From NCBI GenBank assembly GCA_041441355.1, contig JASDTF010000016.1, forward strand, positions 56,899 to 120,898: a stretch of DNA of 64,000 nt, read 5' to 3'. Under the pieces are notes generated by a model that worked only from the letters and a program-made list of their open reading frames with translations, did not search any database and was not told the origin of the DNA. This document shows, piece after piece, positions 28,933 through 39,318 of this stretch; the first letter of the stretch is position 1; the number at the start of each line of letters is the position of its first letter. The DNA comes from Propionivibrio sp. Its GTDB lineage: Bacteria > Pseudomonadota > Gammaproteobacteria > Burkholderiales > Rhodocyclaceae. The position numbers and the translations under genes were made by a program.

Positions 28933-29748
28933 TTACGGGGCGGGCAGGGCGCCGAGCTCGCGCAAGGCGGCGCGGACGATGGCTTCGCGTTTGGGCGCAT
29001 CGGCGATGCCGCCGGGCATGTCCAGGTTGAGCGCGAAGAACACCGGTCCTTCGGGACGCTCGACCCAGCCGACCCACCAGCCGACCGATTCACCGTTGCG
29101 GTTGAACCAGCCGGTCTTGGCCCGCAGGATGAAATCGCGGCCTGCCTCGACGACCATCAAATCCTTGACCAGGCGTTGGTGCGCGAGCTCGAACGGCAGG
29201 CGGTTGCGGTACAGGCGCTCGAGAAAGTCGATTTGTTCGTGCGCCGAAACGCGCAGGCTGCCGTCGAGCCAGAAGTCGTCGACGCGCGCACCGATCGTGC
29301 GGTTGCCGTAGTCGAGGTGGGCGAGGGCGGCGCGTTCGGCGGTCTCGCCGATCTTGCGGGCGAGGTCCTGATAGACCCAGACGACCGAATGGCGCATCGC
29401 CGAACGCAAGTCCTGGTCGCGGTTCCAGGCCGGGGCGCCGTGCCGGCGGCCGTCCCAGATGATGCGCGAAAACTCGTCGGCGACGGCGTGCTGTTCGAGC
29501 GCGATGAGGGTGTGCGGAAGCTTGAAGGTCGAGGCCGGCGCGTAGCGCGTCGCCGCGCGTTCGGGGGCGTAGACCTGGCGCGGCGCGTCGGGGCTGCGCT
29601 GATCGAGGATGAGCAGCGTGCCTTGCGCCGACTCGCGGGCAAAGTGCTGGGACCAGTCCGGGCGGACGATTTCGGTCGGAGCGGCCAGACCGAGCAGCGG
29701 CGCGGCGGCGATAAACAGCGCCAGAACGGCTTGGCGGGTAGGGGGCAT
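28933..29748 (-). CDS. blaOXA: Class D beta-lactamase (OXA-2-like)
   Basis: Signal peptide; STFK, SVV, YGN, FWL, KTG motifs in canonical order; HQRLVKDLMVVEAG resembles OXA-2 as I recall it. Confidence 0.92.
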   Translation of the reverse strand: MPPTRQAVLALFIAAAPLLGLAAPTEIVRPDWSQHFARESAQGTLLILDQRSPDAPRQVYAPERAATRYAPASTFKLPHTLIALEQHAVADEFSRIIWDGRRHGAPAWNRDQDLRSAMRHSVVWVYQDLARKIGETAERAALAHLDYGNRTIGARVDDFWLDGSLRVSAHEQIDFLERLYRNRLPFELAHQRLVKDLMVVEAGRDFILRAKTGWFNRNGESVGWWVGWVERPEGPVFFALNLDMPGGIADAPKREAIVRAALRELGALPAP

Positions 29749-29814
29749 AACGGGTGCAGCAGTGACAAAGGCGGAATTATCGCCTGCCGAGGCCCTTAAC
29801 CCAAGCCGAAGCGT

Positions 29815-29842
29815 AAAAAAAGGACACCCCGCGGGGTGTCCT
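29815..29842 (-). terminator. Intrinsic terminator of the DASS gene
   Basis: Perfect 22-bp palindrome aggacaccccgcggggtgtcct followed on the minus strand by a T-run. Confidence 0.8.
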
Positions 29843-29865
29843 GGTGACAAGCTGCACGCCGTTTT

Positions 29866-31679: not shown

Positions 31680-31708
31680 TTGAAAAAACAAATTTGCTGC
31701 GTTAAATT
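31680..31708 (+). promoter_or_regulatory. Candidate sigma70 promoter of the octaheme cytochrome operon
   Basis: TTGAAA-17-TAAATT followed by an AT-rich tract up to the RBS. Confidence 0.5.
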
Positions 31709-31768
31709 ATTAGTACGTGCTTATACAATAACTTTCATATGCAGTAACGATCATTGCCGGGAGAGGCC

Positions 31769-33394
31769 ATGAGGCAAGGCGCGTTTCGAGGGGTGAAAGG
31801 GTGGTTGGGGGCCGCGTTCATGGCGGCGTTGCTGTGCGGAGCGTGGAACGTTCTCGCGGCGGACGCGCCCAGGCCGGTCAAGCTGAACACCACGGCCGAC
31901 CATTCCAAGTTCAAGGAACTGCAGCGTGAATTCGCTTCCGGGCCGGAGGTGACGCAGGCCTGCCTCTCCTGCCACACCGAGGCGGCCGGGCAGATCCACC
32001 GCACCAAGCACTGGACCTGGGAGTACAAGAACCCGCAGACCGGGCAGGTGTTGGGCAAGAAGCACGTGCTCAACAATTACTGCATCTCGGTCGAGACCAA
32101 CCTCGGCGCCTGCGCCAGCTGCCACGTCGGCTACGGCTGGAAGGACAACAACTTCGACTTCGCGTCGGAGAAGAACGTCGATTGCCTGGTCTGCCACGAC
32201 ACGACCGGCATCTACAAGAAGCCGGCCGGTTTTGCCGGCAATCCGGTGCTCAAGGACGTCGAAGTACCACCCGGTTCAGGCAACGTGATCAAGGGCATCG
32301 ACATCGCCAAGGTGGTGCAGAAGGTCGGCAAGACCAGCCGCGACACCTGCGGCGCCTGCCACTTCTTCGGCGGCGGCGGCGACGGCGTCAAGCACGGCGA
32401 CCTCGACAGCTCGATGGCGGCGCCCGACCGCGAGCTCGACGTGCACATGGACGCCACCGGCCTTGACTTCACCTGCGCCACCTGTCACAAGACCGCGAGC
32501 CATGATGTGGCTGGCAGCCGCTACACGCCGACGGCAGTGGATACCGGCGGCGCGCACCTGCGCGGCAAGGCCGACAACAGCAATCCGGCCACCTGCGTTT
32601 CGTGCCACGGCCAGGCGCCGCACAAGCGGACGGCGCTGCTCAACACGCACACCGACAAGCTGGCTTGCCAGACCTGCCACATCCCGGCCTTTGCGCGCGG
32701 CGGGGTGCCGACCAAGATGAGTTGGGACTGGTCGACCGCCGGCGAGCGCGACGCGGAGGGCAAGCAGGTCACGCGTAAGGATGCCAAGGGGCATGTGATC
32801 TACGAATCGCGCAAGGGCAGCTTCACGGTTGCCGAGAACGTCAAGCCGGAATACCTCTGGTTCAACGGGCAGGTGAACTACACCCTGGCCGAGGACAAGA
32901 TCGCCGATCCGGAGAAGATCGTGCAGGTCAATTCGATCGGCGGCAGCCCCGGCGACGGCAAGTCGCAGGTCTGGCCGTTCAAGGTCTTCCGCGGCTCCCA
33001 GCCTTACGACAAGGAGCACCGGACGTTGGTCAAGCCGCACGTGGCCGGCAACGACGACACCGCCTACTGGAAGAACCTGGTGTGGGACAAGGCCGTGGCC
33101 ACCGGCATGGCCTCGGCGGGGCTGCCGTTCTCGGGCCAGGTCGGCTTCGTTACGACCGAGATGTTCTGGCCGGTGACGCACATGGTGGCGCCGAAGGAAA
33201 AGTCCGTACGCTGCACCGAATGCCACAGCCGCGACGGACGGCTGGAGGGCGTGCCGGGCCTTTACATTCCCGGGCGCGACCGCAATGCGCTGGTCGATAC
33301 CCTGGGTTGGGCGCTGGCCGGGCTGGCGTTGGTCGGCTCCTTGGGCCATGGGCTGCTGCGCATCGTCGCTCGTCGCCGCGAAACCAAGGAATGA
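31769..33394 (+). CDS. otr: Octaheme c-type cytochrome, tetrathionate reductase (Otr) family, with C-terminal TM anchor
   Basis: Eight CxxCH (CLSCH, CASCH, CLVCH, CGACH, CATCH, CVSCH, CQTCH, CTECH); GKKHVLNNYC motif; signal peptide; hydrophobic C-terminus. Confidence 0.88.
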   Translation: MRQGAFRGVKGWLGAAFMAALLCGAWNVLAADAPRPVKLNTTADHSKFKELQREFASGPEVTQACLSCHTEAAGQIHRTKHWTWEYKNPQTGQVLGKKHVLNNYCISVETNLGACASCHVGYGWKDNNFDFASEKNVDCLVCHDTTGIYKKPAGFAGNPVLKDVEVPPGSGNVIKGIDIAKVVQKVGKTSRDTCGACHFFGGGGDGVKHGDLDSSMAAPDRELDVHMDATGLDFTCATCHKTASHDVAGSRYTPTAVDTGGAHLRGKADNSNPATCVSCHGQAPHKRTALLNTHTDKLACQTCHIPAFARGGVPTKMSWDWSTAGERDAEGKQVTRKDAKGHVIYESRKGSFTVAENVKPEYLWFNGQVNYTLAEDKIADPEKIVQVNSIGGSPGDGKSQVWPFKVFRGSQPYDKEHRTLVKPHVAGNDDTAYWKNLVWDKAVATGMASAGLPFSGQVGFVTTEMFWPVTHMVAPKEKSVRCTECHSRDGRLEGVPGLYIPGRDRNALVDTLGWALAGLALVGSLGHGLLRIVARRRETKE

Positions 33395-33405
33395 GGAGAA
33401 CGGAC

Positions 33406-33999
33406 ATGAGCGAGCGCATCTACATCTTCAAAGGCTTCGAGCGCTTCTGGCACTGGGCGCAGGCGGCGCTGATCATCACCCTGCTGCTCACCGGGTTCGA
33501 GATTCACGGCAGTTATAAGCTGTTCGGCTTCTACAAGGCGCTGGACACCCACACGACGGCGGCGTGGGCGCTGATCGGGCTGTGGGTCTTCGCCATTTTC
33601 TGGCACGTGACCACCGGCGAATGGCGGCACTACATCCCGACCACCGACAAACTGCTGGTCATCGCCCGCTATTACGCCTCCGGCATCTTCCGCGGCGAGC
33701 CGCACCCGTTCAAACCCAGCAGCCTGAACAAGCACAACCCGCTGCAGCGGCTGACCTACCTCGGCATCCTGGTGTGCGTGAGCCCGCTGTTGTGGATCAC
33801 CGGCTGGCTGCTCTACTTCTACGGCAGCTGGAAGGCCTGGGGGCTCGAAACGCTGTCGCTTGAAGCGGTGGCCGTGGCGCACACCGTAGGCGCCTTCCTG
33901 ATGCTGGCCTTCCTCATCTCGCACCTCTATCTTGTAACCACGGGGCGGACGCCGACGGCGCACCTGAAGGCCATGGTCACGGGCTGGGAGGAGCATTGA
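33406..33999 (+). CDS. Cytochrome b/b6 domain membrane subunit (PhsC/FdnI-like quinol-interacting)
   Basis: FERFWHWAQA, TM His residues, KHNPLQRLTY, AHTVGAF...SHLYL. Confidence 0.88.
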   Translation: MSERIYIFKGFERFWHWAQAALIITLLLTGFEIHGSYKLFGFYKALDTHTTAAWALIGLWVFAIFWHVTTGEWRHYIPTTDKLLVIARYYASGIFRGEPHPFKPSSLNKHNPLQRLTYLGILVCVSPLLWITGWLLYFYGSWKAWGLETLSLEAVAVAHTVGAFLMLAFLISHLYLVTTGRTPTAHLKAMVTGWEEH

Positions 34000-34063
34000 A
34001 ACCGCGACACTGAGGCGGCCTTGCCGCTGACGCACCGATCGTTTTTCAACAGGGAGAAGTGAC

Positions 34064-34456
34064 ATGGGGATCAAACAAGTGGTGGTCGGCGCGGTGGCGC
34101 TGGCTGCCCTCGGGGTCGCCGCCCAGGCTACCGCTTACGACGGCGACTGGAAGCGCGGTCGCATTTACTACCGCAGCGTGTGCACCTCGTGCCACGTCGC
34201 CTCGCCGGTCGGCGGAATCAACCCGAGTTCGAAGACCAAGGCTGAGTGGAACGCCTATCTGCAGGCCGACAAGCACGCCAAGGGCAAGGACGCGGTGAGC
34301 CACTACGTCAGCCAGGGCTATCGCAACAGCATCAAGGCGGCGAACAAGGCGGCCGAGAAATTCGCCGATGTGCCCGACAAGGAGCTGGCCGAGGACATCA
34401 AGGCCTTCCTGCTCAAGGGCGCCAAGGACGGCGACGCGCCGGCCAGCTGCAGCTGA
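34064..34456 (+). CDS. Periplasmic monoheme cytochrome c
   Basis: Signal peptide; single CTSCH; ends PASCS. Confidence 0.85.
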   Translation: MGIKQVVVGAVALAALGVAAQATAYDGDWKRGRIYYRSVCTSCHVASPVGGINPSSKTKAEWNAYLQADKHAKGKDAVSHYVSQGYRNSIKAANKAAEKFADVPDKELAEDIKAFLLKGAKDGDAPASCS

Positions 34457-34481
34457 ACGTCCATCCATTCAGGAGACGACC

Positions 34482-35636
34482 ATGAGCCTCAGGCAATCCG
34501 CGGTGCTGGCGCTGCTTGCCGCCAGCCTTCTTTCCTTTGCGCCGGCCCCGGTGCAGGCCGCCGACCCGTCCGCCGCGACTGCGCTTCAGCCGCGCGAGGG
34601 GTGGTACAAGCAGCTCGTCGATTTCGATTTCATGCGCGCCAACGTTGACATCCCACCCAAGCCGGGGGTGCTGATCGTCGATTCGCGGCCGGCGGCGCGG
34701 CAGTACGATCCGGGCCACATTCCCGGGGCGATCAACATTCCCGATACCCAGTTCGACAAGCAGGTCGCCCGCCTTCCGGCCGACAAGAACTCGCTGCTCG
34801 TCTTCTACTGCGGCGGCGTCGATTGCCCGCTCAGCCACAACTCGGCGTTCAAGGCCGAGCAGCTCGGCTACACCAACATCAAGGTCTATCCGCAAGGGAT
34901 GCCCGACTGGGCGGCGCGCGGCGGCCAGGTGGCGGTGTCGGCGGCGTTCATCAAGAAGCTGATCGACGAGAAGGGCGCCTATGCCCTGATCGACGCGCGC
35001 CCGAAGCGGGTGGCCGAGAAAGGCATGATCCCGACCGCGATCAACATTTCCGACACCGAGTTCGACAAGCAGACCGACAAGCTGCCGACCGACAAGGCGA
35101 CGCCGCTGATCTACTACTGTGGTGGTTTGGAATGCGTGCTTTCCGACAAATCGGCGGCCAAGGCCAAGGCGCTCGGGTACAGCAACGTCCTGACCTACCC
35201 CGAGGGCTATCCGGAATGGGAAAAGCTGCACGGCGCAGCGCCGGCGGTGGTCGCATCTGCAGGCAGTGCGCCGGCACCCGCAGTGGCGAGCCCGAGCCTG
35301 ATCGCGGGCAAGGAAAAAGGGTCGGTGACCGTGGCCTCGTTCGAGCAGGTCTGGAAAACGGCGCCGGCGAACCTCGTCCTCGTCGACGTCCGCGACGCCA
35401 AGGAGTACGCCGCGGGGACGATCAAGGGCGCGCAAAATCTGCCGATCAATGACCTCGAAAAACAGGTCGGCACGCTGCCGACGAACAAGCCGGTGGTCTT
35501 CTTCTGCAGCACCGGCGCCCGCGCCGGCGAAGCCTACGACACCGTCAAGCTGCTGCGCGGCGAGGTTCAGGCTTACTTCCTCGATGCCGGCATCAAGTTT
35601 TCTGGCGACGGCGCTTACACGATGACGCAAAAGTAA
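34482..35636 (+). CDS. Secreted triple-domain rhodanese/sulfurtransferase
   Basis: Signal peptide; three repeats (VDSRP..GHIPGAINI; IDARP..GMIPTAINI; VDVRD..GTIKGAQNL) with loops YCGGVDC, YCGGLEC, FCSTGAR. Confidence 0.88.
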   Translation: MSLRQSAVLALLAASLLSFAPAPVQAADPSAATALQPREGWYKQLVDFDFMRANVDIPPKPGVLIVDSRPAARQYDPGHIPGAINIPDTQFDKQVARLPADKNSLLVFYCGGVDCPLSHNSAFKAEQLGYTNIKVYPQGMPDWAARGGQVAVSAAFIKKLIDEKGAYALIDARPKRVAEKGMIPTAINISDTEFDKQTDKLPTDKATPLIYYCGGLECVLSDKSAAKAKALGYSNVLTYPEGYPEWEKLHGAAPAVVASAGSAPAPAVASPSLIAGKEKGSVTVASFEQVWKTAPANLVLVDVRDAKEYAAGTIKGAQNLPINDLEKQVGTLPTNKPVVFFCSTGARAGEAYDTVKLLRGEVQAYFLDAGIKFSGDGAYTMTQK

Positions 35637-35653: not shown

Positions 35654-35682
35654 AAACGGTCGCGCGTGCGGCCGTTTTTTTT
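35654..35682 (+). terminator. Intrinsic terminator of the otr operon
   Basis: aaacggtcgc-gcgt-gcggccgttt followed by a T-run. Confidence 0.75.
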
Positions 35683-35857
35683 ATAGTTCGAGGTGGGCCC
35701 GGGCGCGCGCGAGCAGTTCCTTGCAGCAGCGACAGGTGACGCAGGGGATGAGCAGCGGCAGGCAACCGATCAATCCGGCGAGCAGCACGGGCGCCAGGGT
35801 GATGGCGCGCAGCAGGCGTTCAGCACGGGACAGACGCAAGGTGCGGTTCATGATCAT
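35681..35857 (-). CDS. 58-aa Cys-rich membrane peptide, weakly DUF2892/YgaP-TM-like
   Basis: AGGAG RBS; ERLLR...LLAGLIGCLPL...CVTCRCC; lies directly downstream of a sigma54-like promoter. Confidence 0.6.
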   Translation of the reverse strand: MIMNRTLRLSRAERLLRAITLAPVLLAGLIGCLPLLIPCVTCRCCKELLARARAHLEL

Positions 35858-35891
35858 GATGCTCTCCTGTCGGCAGGGATGGTGTACCACG

Positions 35892-35907
35892 ATCAATTTG
35901 CGTGCCA
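35892..35907 (-). promoter_or_regulatory. Sigma54 -24/-12 promoter (variant -12)
   Basis: Minus strand TGGCACGCAAATTGAT vs consensus TGGCAC-N5-TTGC. Confidence 0.65.
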
Positions 35908-36043: not shown

Positions 36044-37405
36044 ATGGACTATCCTGCAGCATCGCTTTCCGAACTGGTGTCCTTCCTCGACAGCCAGGAC
36101 GAGCCGAGCATCGTGATGGATGCGGACTACCGCATCCTTGCCGCAAATCGGGCGTATACCGCGGCGTTCGGGCGGATGGGGGCGGTGACCGGGCGCCACT
36201 GCTACGAAGTCTCGCACCGCTTTGCCGCGCCCTGCGACCAGGCCGGCGAGCCTTGCCCCCTGAACATGAGTCGGCAGAGCGGCCAGGCGCAGCGTGTGCT
36301 GCACCTGCACCACACGCCCACGGGCGAAGAACACGTCGATGTGCAGACGACGCCGATCCGCGATCGGCACGGGCGTCTCGCGTATTTCGTCGAGACGATG
36401 CACGTCGTCCGCCAGGCGTCGAGCCGGCCCGCGGCCGAGGGGCTGGTCGGGCGCTCGCCCCGCTTCCAGAGCATGCTGGCCCTGGCGCTGCGCGTGGCCC
36501 CGACCTCGGCCAACGTGTTGCTGCGCGGCGAAACCGGCACTGGCAAAGAACTGCTGGCGCGGCTGATCCACGAGGCCGGGCGGGCGGCGCGTGGCCCCTT
36601 CGTGGTCGTCGACTGCTCGGGGCTGAGCGAAACCCTGTTCGAGAGCGAGTTGTTCGGCTACGAGAAAGGCGCGTTCACCGGCGCCCAGCACCGCAAGACC
36701 GGCCTCGTCGAGGCGGCCAACGGCGGCACGCTCTTCCTCGACGAAGTCGGCGACATCCCCGGTAGCCTGCAGGTCAAGCTGCTGCGCCTGCTGGAGAACG
36801 GCACCTTCCGCCGGGTCGGCGGCGTTGAGGTGCTGCGCAGCACCTTCCGCCTGATCTGCGCCACTCACCGCGACCTTGAAGGCATGGTCGGTGCCGAGCG
36901 TTTCCGGCGCGACCTCTACCACCGCATCAACACCTTCCCGATCCTCGTGCCGGCGTTGGCCGAGCGCGGCGAGGACATCCCCCTGCTGGCCGCCTCCTTC
37001 CTCAAGCGGGTGGCCGGCGAACGCAGCCTGCGCCTGTCGCCCGACGCCGTGGCGGCGCTGCAGGCGCGGCCCTGGTCGGGCAACATCCGCGAACTGCGCA
37101 ACCTGATCGAGCGCGCCACCGTCCTGGCCGACGGCGACACCCTTGAAGCCGCGCATTTCGACATGGACGCGGTGACGGGCGCAAGGTCACCCGAAGCGAG
37201 GCCGACGACGAGCGAATTTCATGTCGGCGAGATGCTGCCGCTGGCCGAAGTCGAACGCCGTTACCTCGCCTGGGCGATGGCACAGCCGGGCGGGCGCGAG
37301 GCGCTGGCCCGATGCCTGGGGCTGGGCGAGCGCACCTTGTACCGCAAGCTGGCCGCGTTGAAGGCCGGAGGCTTGGGCGGGGCGAGCGCCGCCGGACAGG
37401 GCTGA
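36044..37405 (+). CDS. fisR: Sigma54-dependent activator (PAS-AAA+-Fis HTH), FisR-like polysulfide sensor
   Basis: [40 protein letters not shown]; Cys at residues 53, 64 and 71, the positions I recall for Cupriavidus FisR. Confidence 0.85.
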
Positions 37406-37535
37406 CGCGCACGGGCGCGGAACTCTTGCCGGTTCTCGCACACTAACAAACATTAGAGATTTATAATATTCTTGTTTTAACCCCGGGGTGCTGCCGCGGA
37501 CTGACGCCGCCCGCCCCATGTTCTGGAGATTCCCG

Positions 37536-37967
37536 GTGCTGATCGACTGGACCCATTTCACCCCCGGCGCCGCCTTGCTCGGCGGCGTCCTGATCGGCCT
37601 CGCGGCTGCGGCGTTGATCCTCGTCAACGGGCGCATCGCCGGCATCAGCGGCATCGTCGGCGGGCTTTTCCGGCCGCAGCGCGGCGAGGTCGGCTGGCGG
37701 CTGGCCTTCGTCGGCGGCTTGCTCGCGGCGCCGTTGCTGTATGGCCTGTGGGCGCCGCTGCCCGCGGCGCGCATTGAAGCTGGGCCTTTGCTCATCGTCC
37801 TGGCCGGCTTGCTGGTCGGCGTTGGCACCCGTTACGGCGCCGGTTGTACCAGCGGGCACGGGGTGTGCGGCCTGTCGCGCCTGTCGCCGCGCTCGCTGGT
37901 GGCGACGCTGGTGTTCATGGTGGCGGGCTTTGCCACCGTTTTCTTTGTCCGCCATCTGTTCGCCTGA
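37536..37967 (+). CDS. YeeE/YedE family sulfur transporter subunit (PmpA/B-like)
   Basis: [34 protein letters not shown]; GTG start after GGAGA. Confidence 0.88.
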
Positions 37968-37974
37968 GGTGTGC

Positions 37975-38406
37975 ATGAACATCCGTTTGAATACCTTTTT
38001 CGCTTTTCTCGTCGGCCTGCTGTTCGGCCTGGGCTTGATCGTCTCGGGCATGAGCGACCCCGCCAAGGTGCTCGGTTTCCTCGACCTGGCCGGCGCCTGG
38101 GACCCGTCACTGGCGCTGGTCATGGGCGGGGCGATCGGGGTTGGCTTCGTTGCCTTCACCCTGGCCGGGCGGCGCCAACGCTCGCTGCTCGGCTTGCCGA
38201 TGCAATTGCCGACGGCGCGCCAGATCGACCGCCGACTGGTGCTCGGCAGCCTCGTGTTCGGCGTCGGCTGGGGGCTGGCCGGGATCTGCCCTGGGCCGGC
38301 GCTGGTGTTGTTCGGCGCCGGAGCGCCCGAAGGCGCGTTGTTTGTCGCCGCGATGCTGGTCGGCATGGGCGCGTTCGAAATCCTCGAGCGGCGCCGGGTG
38401 CACTAA
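37975..38406 (+). CDS. YeeE/YedE family sulfur transporter subunit (PmpA/B-like)
   Basis: [38 protein letters not shown]. Confidence 0.88.
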
Positions 38407-38436: not shown

Positions 38437-39318
38437 ATGAACGTACAGACTCCTCAGGTTGAAGGCTTCTACGATCCCGCAACGTCGACGCTCAGCTACC
38501 TGCTGCTCGACCGCGCCAGCGGCGCGGCGGCGCTGATCGACAGCGTCCTCGACTACGATCCGAAGTCCGGGCGCACCCGCACCACCTCGGCCGACCGCCT
38601 GCTGGCGCGCGTCGCCGAACTCGGGGCGCGGGTCGAATGGATTTTGGAAACGCACGTGCATGCCGATCACCTCTCGGCGGCGGCTTACCTTAAAGAGAAG
38701 CTCGGAGCGAAGGTGGCCATCGGCGAGCGCATCGGTGCGGTGCAGCAGGTGTTCAGGCAGCTGTTCAACGCCGAGCCGGAATTCGCCACTGACGGCCGCC
38801 AGTTCGACCGCCTGCTCGCTGATGGCGAAACGCTGAGCCTGGGCAGCCTTGAAATCGAAGCCTGGCAGACGCCCGGGCACACCCCGGCCTGCCTGACGTA
38901 TGTGGTGCGCGGTGGTGGCGAAACGCAGGCCTTCGTCGGCGACACGCTGTTCATGCCCGACTATGGCACGGCGCGCTGCGACTTCCCGGGCGGCGACGCG
39001 GCGACGCTCTACCGCTCGATCCGGCGCATCCTCAGCCTGCCCGAGGCGACGACGCTCTATATGTGCCACGACTACCGGCCGTCCGGGCGTGACGTCGCTT
39101 ACGTGAGCACGGTCGGCGCGCAGCGCGCGGCCAACGTGCACATCCACGACGGGGTGGATGAAGCCGCGTTCGTGGCAATGCGCCAGGCGCGCGATGCGCA
39201 GCTCGAAGCGCCGGTGCTGCTCCTGCCCTCGGTGCAGGTGAACATGCGCGGCGGCGAGCTGCCGCCGGCGGAAGCCAACGGCACGCGCTACCTGAAGATT
39301 CCGCTCAACGCGCTTTGA
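38437..39318 (+). CDS. pdo: Persulfide dioxygenase (MBL fold, Blh/PDO type)
   Basis: SVLDYDPKSG, ETHVHADHLSA, TPGHTPAC, GDTLFMPDYGTARCDFPGG, CHDY, YLKIPLN. Confidence 0.88.
   Translation: MNVQTPQVEGFYDPATSTLSYLLLDRASGAAALIDSVLDYDPKSGRTRTTSADRLLARVAELGARVEWILETHVHADHLSAAAYLKEKLGAKVAIGERIGAVQQVFRQLFNAEPEFATDGRQFDRLLADGETLSLGSLEIEAWQTPGHTPACLTYVVRGGGETQAFVGDTLFMPDYGTARCDFPGGDAATLYRSIRRILSLPEATTLYMCHDYRPSGRDVAYVSTVGAQRAANVHIHDGVDEAAFVAMRQARDAQLEAPVLLLPSVQVNMRGGELPPAEANGTRYLKIPLNAL

Follow-up and report, generated by a model that had tools for sequence, protein, structure and literature searches.

The octaheme cytochrome Otr was reportedly crystallized in 2004, and its physiological role is said to be still open. 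Mechanistic work on Otr rests entirely on the soluble enzyme of Shewanella, and the literature treats the protein as soluble (PMC12949373). Here, we analyze a 64,000-nt stretch of DNA (hereafter the window) from Propionivibrio sp. (GenBank assembly GCA_041441355.1, contig JASDTF010000016.1, positions 56,899 to 120,898 of the forward strand), which carries a four-gene operon encoding an Otr-family protein (OtrA), a cytochrome b (OtrB), a small cytochrome c with a Cys-containing tail, and a triple rhodanese. We conclude with good confidence that OtrA forms a complex with the cytochrome b and is functionally linked to sulfur trafficking. More tentatively, the operon may encode a membrane-bound, quinone-coupled Otr complex together with a periplasmic sulfur relay, which would carry out ubiquinol-driven reduction of tetrathionate or other polythionates. 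An initial annotation of this locus, made from the sequence alone, had proposed a complete, molybdenum-independent pathway from quinol to polythionate or polysulfide.

The closest described protein is Otr of Shewanella oneidensis (PDB 1SP3), a member of the same family with eight CxxCH motifs and a GK..NNxC motif in which Lys56 and Cys64 are conserved. Shewanella Otr, a soluble protein, is proposed to receive its electrons through CymA and periplasmic cytochromes (PMC12949373), whereas the window Otr is predicted to be anchored in the membrane, with a cytochrome b gene 11 nt downstream. The window operon also adds two sulfur-handling partners that have not been described for the Shewanella protein. 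In the orange Guaymas Beggiatoaceae, the gene for Otr (BOGUAY_2386, a tetrathionate and nitrite reductase in vitro) is followed by one annotated as "thiosulfate reductase cytochrome b subunit" (PMC6449678). There, however, the cytochrome b was not treated as a partner of Otr, and the genes downstream encode PhsABC-like molybdoenzyme subunits in place of a Cys-tail cytochrome c and a triple rhodanese (PMC6449678).

Two groups of membrane-bound enzymes offer further comparisons. FdnGHI, HyaABC and PhsABC likewise combine a four-helix diheme cytochrome b, containing four conserved His residues, with a periplasmic subunit that has one C-terminal transmembrane (TM) helix. In FdnH/FdnI and HyaA/HyaC, this tail-anchored periplasmic subunit sits on a cytochrome b of family PF01292. 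The partner of the cytochrome b in these enzymes is an Fe-S subunit plus a molybdenum or Ni-Fe catalytic subunit, whereas here it would be an octaheme cytochrome c; moreover, the anchor helix of window-type Otr has its own near-invariant His, unlike theirs. In MccA-D/SirA-D, an octaheme cytochrome c acts on an inorganic sulfur compound with quinol electrons supplied through dedicated membrane subunits, as we propose for OtrA. The Mcc/Sir systems employ a heme-free NrfD-like subunit, an Fe-S protein and a heme-copper site, whereas the window operon encodes a diheme cytochrome b, no Fe-S protein, and a predicted Lys-ligated heme.

The two remaining proteins recall other sulfur systems. TsdA/TsdB and SoxXA/SoxYZ, which act on thiosulfate or tetrathionate, feature a c-type heme protein in which a Cys is essential and a carrier bearing a Cys at its C-terminus, and a distant locus places a member of the window cytochrome c family beside SoxZ. 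Neither sequence nor fold comparison related the window cytochrome to TsdA/TsdB or SoxXA/SoxYZ; unlike them, it holds heme and Cys tail in one 105-residue protein. In the YeeE/TsuA-TsuB and SoxT systems, the gene for a YeeE-family channel is accompanied by genes for periplasmic thiol proteins, which are proposed to hand sulfur to the channel; SoxT, itself YeeE-like, is suggested to take up carrier-bound sulfur with such help (PMC11582611). The partners of SoxT are DsbA- or SoxS-type thioredoxins, whereas here they would be a heme protein and a triple rhodanese; and the YeeE-type genes of the window, unlike those of these systems, are limited to a split yeeE/yedE pair located 1.9 kb downstream, in a module with FisR and a persulfide dioxygenase (PDO). 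Full-text literature searches returned no description of a tail-anchored Otr–cytochrome b complex, of the Cys-tail cytochrome c family, or of the four-gene operon, in line with the earlier statement that no characterization of this four-component system is known.

Results

The source assembly, from a Propionivibrio-like member of the Rhodocyclaceae, comprises 3.2 Mb and is 94% complete. All results reported here come from sequence, conservation and gene neighborhood; the signal-like sequences of Otr, the cytochrome c and the rhodanese, along with some motifs, were read by eye. A scan of GTDB species representatives yielded 565 loci with a relative of the window Otr. The best 80 of these 565 were kept, nearly all from Betaproteobacteria, and co-occurrence was counted in 51 loci with at least 5 kb of sequence downstream and 2.5 kb upstream. 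For a class-wide view, 401 genomes spread over the class were sampled, 26 of which have an Otr above cut-off, and 30 loci from different families were examined.

The four genes lie on the plus strand at positions 31769–35636, separated by 11, 64 and 25 nt. The first, otr (otrA, 31769..33394), encodes a 541-aa octaheme c-type cytochrome of the Otr family, with an N-terminal signal-like sequence and a predicted C-terminal membrane anchor. It is followed by cytb (otrB, 33406..33999), encoding a 197-aa diheme cytochrome b of the FdnI/HyaC/PhsC type with four predicted TM helices; by cytc (34064..34456), encoding a monoheme cytochrome c of 130 aa; and by rhd3 (34482..35636), encoding a triple rhodanese of 384 aa. 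The last two products also begin with signal-like sequences and are probably secreted. An intrinsic terminator, graded strong, starts 17 nt past the rhd3 stop codon (35654..35687, plus strand); its 10-bp stem (6 GC pairs, 4-nt loop) spans 35654-35677 and precedes the T-run TTTTTTTT. The tight four-gene operon with a terminator, and the two secreted partners (one with CTSCH, the other with three PF00581 domains), are thus as the initial annotation had described them, and the operon holds no molybdoenzyme gene, in agreement with the molybdenum independence claimed for it.

OtrA matches the full length of the family profile TIGR04315 (positions 1-440) with 630.1 bits, against a cut-off of 375, and scores 242 bits on PF11783. 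It carries eight CxxCH heme-binding motifs, the number found in 123 of the 125 homologues collected. Residues 51-493 align with 1SP3 (393 bits), and in this alignment the active-site motif GKKHVLNNYC (residues 96-105; window 32054..32083, plus strand) is superimposed on Lys56..Cys64. K97 corresponds to Lys56, reportedly the ligand of the catalytic heme in the 2004 structure, and C105 corresponds to Cys64; OtrA is accordingly predicted to have a distal Lys ligand with a Cys close by. Across 122 Otr sequences, G96, K97, N102 and C105 never vary.

Where the window protein departs from soluble Shewanella Otr is at its C-terminus. An extension of ~45 residues, not present in the Shewanella protein (window 33257..33367, plus strand), comprises a G-x-Y-x-P-G-R-D linker, a TM helix with a near-invariant His (His527), and a basic tail predicted to be cytoplasmic. 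Y499, P501 and His527 are conserved in 120-121 of the 122 sequences, and a hydrophobic C-terminal helix is seen in 28 of the 30 class-wide Otr sequences. The tail at locus L108 is only weakly hydrophobic, and L135 is the sole class-wide Otr clearly having a short soluble-type C-terminus like that of 1SP3; no cytb is present on its 4.4-kb contig. By every sequence test the window octaheme protein is a member of the Otr family, except in solubility, for which the anchor-free Shewanella type differs from it by lacking the conserved TM helix. The earlier description of a membrane-anchored Otr, with eight CxxCH motifs, a GKK..NNYC motif and a C-terminal helix, is upheld.

OtrB belongs to PF01292 (93.6 bits; gathering score 30.1). 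Its best NCBIfam match is PhsC (NF011582), at 125.4 bits against an equivalog cut-off of 204, and no phsA or phsB gene is found in the window; judged by these scores, the protein is PhsC-like but not PhsC. Four His residues (H16, H49, H159, H173) are shared by all 114 sequences compared, as would be expected of a protein with two transmembrane b hemes, and a crude hydropathy scan resolved three of the four expected TM segments. Across the class, cytb lies directly 3′ of otr in 29 of 30 loci. At L134 (G363:C6, minus strand), the two genes form a natural in-frame fusion of 764 aa, in which Otr is followed by the TM helix, an 18-residue basic linker, and the cytochrome b. The fusion implies that the C-terminus of the anchor helix and the N-terminus of the cytochrome b are both cytoplasmic, the same topology as in FdnGHI, HyaABC and PhsABC, and it is classic fusion evidence for a putative physical Otr–cytochrome b complex. 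Immediately upstream of it lies a triple rhodanese gene (48% identity), and no Cys-tail cytochrome c is encoded there. The only other gene that recurs beside class-wide otr-cytb encodes DUF302 (PF03625; 7 of 30 loci, e.g. L115:7664-8209). From the PF01292 match, the four invariant His residues, the near-constant pairing and the fusion, we infer a physical OtrA–cytochrome b complex coupled to quinone, in keeping with the quinol-type cytochrome b of the initial annotation. On this evidence, otr-cytb is the general core, and the soluble Otr of Shewanella the exception.

The co-occurrence of the four genes is far beyond chance. All four are present in 40 of the 51 adequately flanked loci, mostly from Betaproteobacteria; among the other 11, the rhodanese alone is missing in 3, otr-cytb stands by itself in 7, and 1 has neither. 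The order otr-cytb-cytc-rhd3 is tight in 15 loci and contains an insert in 17, the order cytc-rhd3-otr-cytb is found in Azonexus and Aromatoleum, and a few loci have other arrangements. Since the genes are kept together across different orders, selection appears to act on their co-location, over and above inherited synteny. In a maximum-likelihood tree of Otr, 73 of the 74 sequences with a nearby cytc or rhd3 fall into one clade of 78 (SH-aLRT 94), and the cytc/rhd3 label changes 7 times on the tree versus 37.9 times in shuffles, and none of 500 shuffles gave so low a value. Magnetospirillum (Alphaproteobacteria) and an Acidiferrobacterales genome belong to this clade as well, which suggests that the cluster has moved as a unit. 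The four-gene form is, by this phylogeny, a clade-specific elaboration of the much wider two-gene otr-cytb core. The survey thus confirms that the genes constitute one conserved unit, also outside the window; to call it a complete pathway is too strong, since the window operon is without the full-length YeeE gene that about half of its relatives have.

The cytc product contains one CTSCH motif, an invariant His71, and an invariant penultimate Cys (Cys129) in the tail AKDG(D/E)xPAxC-x; no Met is conserved in the mature proteins of its family. Its score on PF13442 is 22.5 bits, below the cut-off of 27, and this, with the missing distal Met, sets it outside class I cytochromes c. A profile search gave no NCBIfam hit, and the AlphaFold2 model, although confident (pLDDT 84.6), has no significant PDB neighbor, the best fold match having E 0.93 and a TM-score of 0.31. 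As judged from these profiles, cytc forms a small unannotated family that fits no curated one. Among 1.84 billion proteins, this family accounts for 168 representatives at the 50% identity level; at 90% identity, its members form 1478 clusters. The penultimate Cys is kept in 15 of 15 full-length distant members. In a set of 61 relatives, no genome was found to have cytc without rhd3. Contexts of distant members come from three contigs, each <1 kb, of which only L138 is informative: on this metagenome contig of 903 bp from ENA, a distant cytc (47% identity) lies between soxZ (PF08770, 71 bits) and the start of yeeE. At L139, a YeeE-like start was read by eye downstream of a distant cytc homologue. 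With no conserved Met, a penultimate Cys kept throughout, and a link to YeeE, the family probably does not consist of ordinary electron carriers.

The rhd3 product has three rhodanese domains (PF00581, 156.8 bits). Loops of the form C-x-G-x-x-C are found in domains 1 and 2 (C110/C115 and C213/C218), and domain 3 is the only one with a canonical CxxGxR loop (C342). C110, C115 and C342 are invariant in 52 of 52 orthologues, and C213 and C218 in 51 of 52. Among NCBIfam models, the product comes nearest to the rhodanese part of the selenoprotein TsoB (NF045694), at 120.5 bits versus a cut-off of 805. The window protein is distinct from TsoB, whose motif is UxxxxU (PMC13188914), in having Cys in place of Sec and no DsbD-like membrane domain. 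The triple rhodanese YnjE was considered as a relative and set aside, being absent from the PDB sequence hits.

Many relatives encode a putative sulfur channel within the cluster. The inserts that we examined between cytc and rhd3, of 1.3-2.7 kb, encode a full-length YeeE/YedE-family protein, and some contain two half-size YeeE genes; one such insert (L034) scores 151 bits on PF04143, for which the cut-off is 27. A full-length YeeE family gene occurs in 33 of the 80 loci (the best 80 of 565). These proteins score below the TsuA and YedE equivalog cut-offs and therefore look like a distinct subfamily. In a genome of the same genus (G016; locus L098, G016:C7:8000-27000), cytc, full-length YeeE and rhd3 cluster with genes for HdrA/B/C-like and GltD/HdrA-like proteins, TusA and DsrE, and with an ArsR-like regulator gene; the cluster is without Otr, and a search of this genome, which is 87% complete, did not reveal one. 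The occurrence of cytc, YeeE and Rhd3 both with and without Otr suggests a sulfur module leading from periplasm to cytoplasm that can combine with different redox partners, and Otr–cytochrome b looks like one such partner. Elsewhere, otr has been reported to adjoin divergent soxYZ in lucinid symbionts (PMC11237559). The link of the operon to sulfur, which the initial annotation had also drawn, is well supported, given the rhodanese, the frequent YeeE inserts, and the placement of the cytc family beside SoxZ or Hdr/TusA genes.

A 140-aa secreted protein with two conserved Cys residues also recurs after the rhodanese or YeeE (L100:2218-2640, minus strand; L098:5050-5472, minus strand), in 8 of 80 loci, e.g. 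L042:3996-4424. A provisional "DsrE-like" label for it was dropped, as it has no Pfam or NCBIfam match.

Downstream of the operon is a second group of sulfur-related genes. It is preceded by a convergent gene for a 56-aa, Cys-rich, single-TM peptide (35681..35907, minus strand), which has no Pfam hit and is conserved between rhd3 and fisR, with 55-64% identity, in L018, L019, L024, L025 and L027. A FisR-like sigma54 activator follows (36044..37405, plus strand), with PAS, AAA+ and HTH domains (PF08448; PF00158, 214 bits; PF02954) and Cys53, Cys64 and Cys71. The AAA+ domain and the sensor residues Cys53 and Cys64, read from the translation, agree with the C. pinatubonensis FisR, a protein compared by description only; a Cys53-Cys64 tetrasulfide is described for it, as cited in PMC9495516. 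The only good sigma54-type box near the activator, TGGCACGCAAATTGA at 35893-35907 (1 mismatch), faces the peptide gene. Next comes the split YeeE/YedE-type sulfur transporter, encoded by two half-size genes (37488..38406, plus strand; 37488-37967 and ~38011-38406) that begin 1.9 kb past the operon. The first half scores 25 bits on PF04143 (cut-off 27) and 24 bits on TsuA, and the second half 201 bits on PF20398 (DUF6691). The last gene (38437..39318, plus strand) encodes a PDO-type protein of the metallo-beta-lactamase fold, with 378 bits on NF040641 (Blh) over positions 140-423, which make up the dioxygenase portion of that profile, against a cut-off of 625. A yeeE-yedE-pdo2 operon has been described (PMC7315123).

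Upstream of otr, the signals are less clear. The candidate sigma70-type promoter of the initial annotation, TTGAAA-17-TAAATT (31680..31708, plus strand), is weak, with a 9/12 match; one such site was found versus 0.6 expected, so that chance alone would give a match of this quality and the site is not evidence of a promoter. Just 3′ of it, near the putative -10 (window 31690-31745), lies a palindrome-like element, ATTAGT-N4-GCTTAT, which is partly conserved: it recurs upstream of otr in L019, L020, L022 and L024, with the form ATTAGT-N4-ACTAAT (ATTAGTGCATACTAAT) in L020, and may be an operator for some regulator. An Rfam search of the operon and its surroundings gave no family match and one sub-threshold hit, which is unrelated. 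Sigma54 control of otr by the adjacent FisR was considered and rejected, since neither the window nor its closest relatives have a TGGCAC-N5-TTGC-like box upstream. Plausible sigma54 boxes do occur ~96-114 nt upstream of otr in L032, L044, L047, L060 and L081, clusters of the Comamonadaceae or Sphaerotilaceae type (e.g. TGGCACGAGCCATGC, TGGCATGTACCTTGC), and L047 has a sigma54 activator gene upstream of the otr cluster on the opposite strand. Regulation may therefore differ between lineages.

Discussion

How might these proteins work together? If the operon serves ubiquinol-driven polythionate reduction, OtrA would be the octaheme subunit, with a Lys-ligated catalytic heme and an invariant Cys nearby, and its C-terminal helix would dock on diheme OtrB, as in FdnGHI or [NiFe]-hydrogenase. 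Electrons would move between the ubiquinone pool, the two membrane-spanning b hemes and the eight c hemes. Ubiquinol would reduce tetrathionate, other polythionates, or a derived protein Cys-S-thiosulfonate, yielding thiosulfate or sulfane sulfur, which would be captured by Cys proteins. The Met-free cytc, through Cys129, and the triple rhodanese, with its two CxxxxC domains and a third, catalytic one, would bind and hand on sulfur species made or consumed by Otr, and in many relatives a YeeE-type channel would take the relayed sulfur into the cytoplasm. The sulfur-carrier roles, the substrate, the direction of electron flow and the term "respiration" are all things that we infer, from sequence features and gene context.

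Several lines of evidence are consistent with polythionate reduction. In vitro tetrathionate reduction has been reported for Shewanella Otr (as cited in PMC12949373) and measured for BOGUAY_2386, at 93 µmol/min/mg (PMC6449678), and in sediment microcosms tetrathionate raised expression of an acidobacterial otr 36-fold (bioRxiv 10.1101/2020.10.01.322446). The nearest NCBIfam relative of OtrB is the quinol-oxidizing PhsC, and the thiosulfate that would be produced is what YeeE/TsuA proteins import. A search of the genome, with positive controls included, found neither MenA nor MqnA/D of the menaquinone pathway, so the quinone pool is presumably ubiquinone and ubiquinol the likely donor. The tetrathionate/thiosulfate couple lies at about +198 mV, and ubiquinol can reduce tetrathionate. 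With this donor, reduction of tetrathionate or other polythionates is feasible, and that of polysulfide or thiosulfate is thermodynamically unlikely. Thus, the polythionate branch of the originally proposed pathway survives; its polysulfide branch probably does not, and polysulfide or thiosulfate respiration was set aside.

Other observations weigh against polythionate reduction as the function. The window operon lacks a full-length YeeE gene, and none was detected elsewhere in the genome, in a search made without a positive control. From sequence, Cys129 as a heme ligand is indistinguishable from Cys129 as a sulfur carrier. Many carriers of the operon (Sulfuritalea, Sulfurisoma, Sulfuricellaceae) are sulfur oxidizers. 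Cytochromes b of the FdnI/HyaC type usually have their quinone site on the cytoplasmic side, and with such a site quinol oxidation would dissipate membrane potential, whereas substrate oxidation would conserve it; the energetics hence favor an oxidative role. In a 2026 study, deletion of otr in Shewanella MR-1 and ANA-3 again gave no tetrathionate phenotype, nitrite and hydroxylamine activities dominated in vitro, and sulfite was only suggested as a substrate (PMC12949373).

An oxidative role is the alternative that fares best, though we consider it rather unlikely. The OtrA–cytochrome b complex would oxidize sulfide, carrier-bound sulfane sulfur or sulfite and pass electrons via the diheme b to ubiquinone, conserving energy as formate dehydrogenase-N (Fdh-N) or hydrogenase does; the Cys tail of cytc and the rhodanese would hold the sulfur substrate or product, and YeeE would import it for cytoplasmic oxidation by PDO or Hdr-like enzymes. 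Besides the lifestyle of many hosts, the FdnI- and HyaC-like four-His layout of this PF01292 protein would suit such a role, as would the association of cytc, YeeE and rhd3 with Hdr-like, TusA and DsrE genes in G016, the distant cytc beside SoxZ, and the PDO and FisR genes adjoining the operon in the window. The SoxT model, too, has periplasmic carrier sulfur imported for oxidation (PMC11582611). Yet the characterized Otr enzymes are reductases, with very low thiosulfate oxidase activity (PMC12949373), and the best match of OtrB is to a quinol oxidizer. Furthermore, a Lys-ligated catalytic heme is typical of reductive, NrfA-type catalysis, oxidation of thiosulfate to tetrathionate is unable to reduce ubiquinone, and SoxB was not found in the genome of the window.

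Two further alternatives appear improbable. One is that OtrA and OtrB form a quinol-linked reductase of nitrite, hydroxylamine or NO, serving detoxification or ammonification, with the sulfur proteins unrelated or loosely coupled. The Otr heme core is like that of NrfA and HAO, nitrite and hydroxylamine reduction are the dominant Otr activities in vitro (PMC12949373), BOGUAY_2386 also reduces nitrite (PMC6449678), the hosts are mostly denitrifiers or facultative anaerobes, and the wider two-gene core is without sulfur neighbors. No nitrogen-cycle gene, however, recurs near the cluster in the 80 close or the 30 class-wide loci; in the four-gene clade, otr is co-inherited with the rhodanese, the Cys-tail cytochrome c and YeeE; and the Cys beside the catalytic Lys is invariant.

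The other, about as improbable, is that Otr makes sulfide from sulfite, as proposed for Shewanella sp. ANA-3. The rhodanese and cytc would then handle the sulfide or a sulfane product, and ubiquinol oxidation on the cytoplasmic side would let the membrane potential help to drive the reaction, as in PhsABC. A ttr otr double mutant of ANA-3 built up extra sulfite, and Otr has a heme arrangement in common with MccA/SirA but lacks the copper site of MccA (PMC12949373). OtrB is PhsC-like, and genes for the sulfane-sensing FisR and for PDO adjoin the operon; still, electron transfer from ubiquinol to sulfite would remain strongly uphill despite a contribution from the membrane potential, the literature searched contains no measured activity of this kind for any Otr, and the rhodanese and YeeE suit thiosulfate or sulfane sulfur better.

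It is very improbable that the complex reduces selenite or other selenium or tellurium oxyanions, with the rhodanese and YedE-like proteins trafficking selenium: full-length YeeE of the relatives does score 105 bits on YedE/FdhT selenium proteins versus 103 on TsuA, the CxxxxC rhodanese domains resemble the UxxxxU selenoprotein TsoB, and some TIGR04315 members are annotated as selenoproteins (PMC13188914), but the YedE/FdhT and TsoB scores are far below the family cut-offs, no selD, selA or SECIS context was seen, none of the four operon genes contains an in-frame TGA, and the neighbors are sulfur-specific (FisR, PDO, SoxZ, Hdr, TusA).

Returning to the Otr–cytochrome b complex and its sulfur relay, a bolder and, to our minds, doubtful extension joins two ideas. 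The first is that Met-free cytc represents a new class of sulfur-carrier hemoprotein, in which Cys129, on a D-x-D-x-P-x-x-C tail, would either ligate the heme (His/Cys, like TsdA or SoxA) or swing like the SoxY arm. As a shuttle between YeeE and a periplasmic redox enzyme (Otr in this case), such a protein would carry thiosulfonate or sulfane sulfur and couple electron transfer to sulfur hand-over. The second is that Otr was originally, and is most commonly, the OtrAB complex, which would work as an electrogenic sulfur oxidoreductase coupled to quinone, with the His of the anchor helix near the quinone site, and that soluble Shewanella Otr is a derived outlier; this would explain two decades of missing phenotypes.

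In nature, Otr is probably most often a tail-anchored subunit of a cytochrome b complex, and a large betaproteobacterial clade inherits it together with dedicated sulfur-handling partners. Members of this clade, among them Propionivibrio/Accumulibacter relatives, Sulfuritalea, Rhodoferax, Azonexus and Aromatoleum, are common in habitats such as wastewater, groundwater and lake sediments. The operon narrows the candidate substrates of Otr and makes its role testable in cultivable, genetically tractable hosts. Cultivable bacteria with the four-gene cluster include Aromatoleum tolulyticum ATCC 51758, A. diolicum 22Lin, Azonexus sp. IMCC34839, Sulfurisoma sediminicola BSN1, Magnetospirillum sp. 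UT-4 and Rhodoferax sp. U2-2l, and Zoogloea ramigera has the two-gene form. It also points to an uncharacterized heme-plus-Cys-tail family tied to YeeE-mediated sulfur import, a process that is itself poorly understood. If the proposed function is correct, engineered and freshwater systems would contain a molybdenum-independent, quinone-linked route in the cycling of tetrathionate, thiosulfate and sulfane sulfur.

Additional observations

One of the loci used above, L025 (JARKPR010000047.1), is labelled "Selenomonadales bacterium" in the public record. The tblastn matches of its otr cluster to the window proteins equal those of L024, a contig of a Propionivibrio metagenome-assembled genome, and the two Otr proteins are identical; the label looks like a binning or labelling error. 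Finally, the window also carries, at 28933-29850 on the minus strand, a chromosomal gene for a class D (OXA-type) beta-lactamase (NF012161, 274 bits versus a cut-off of 250), which is nearest to OXA-46 and OXA-2 and scores below both family cut-offs.

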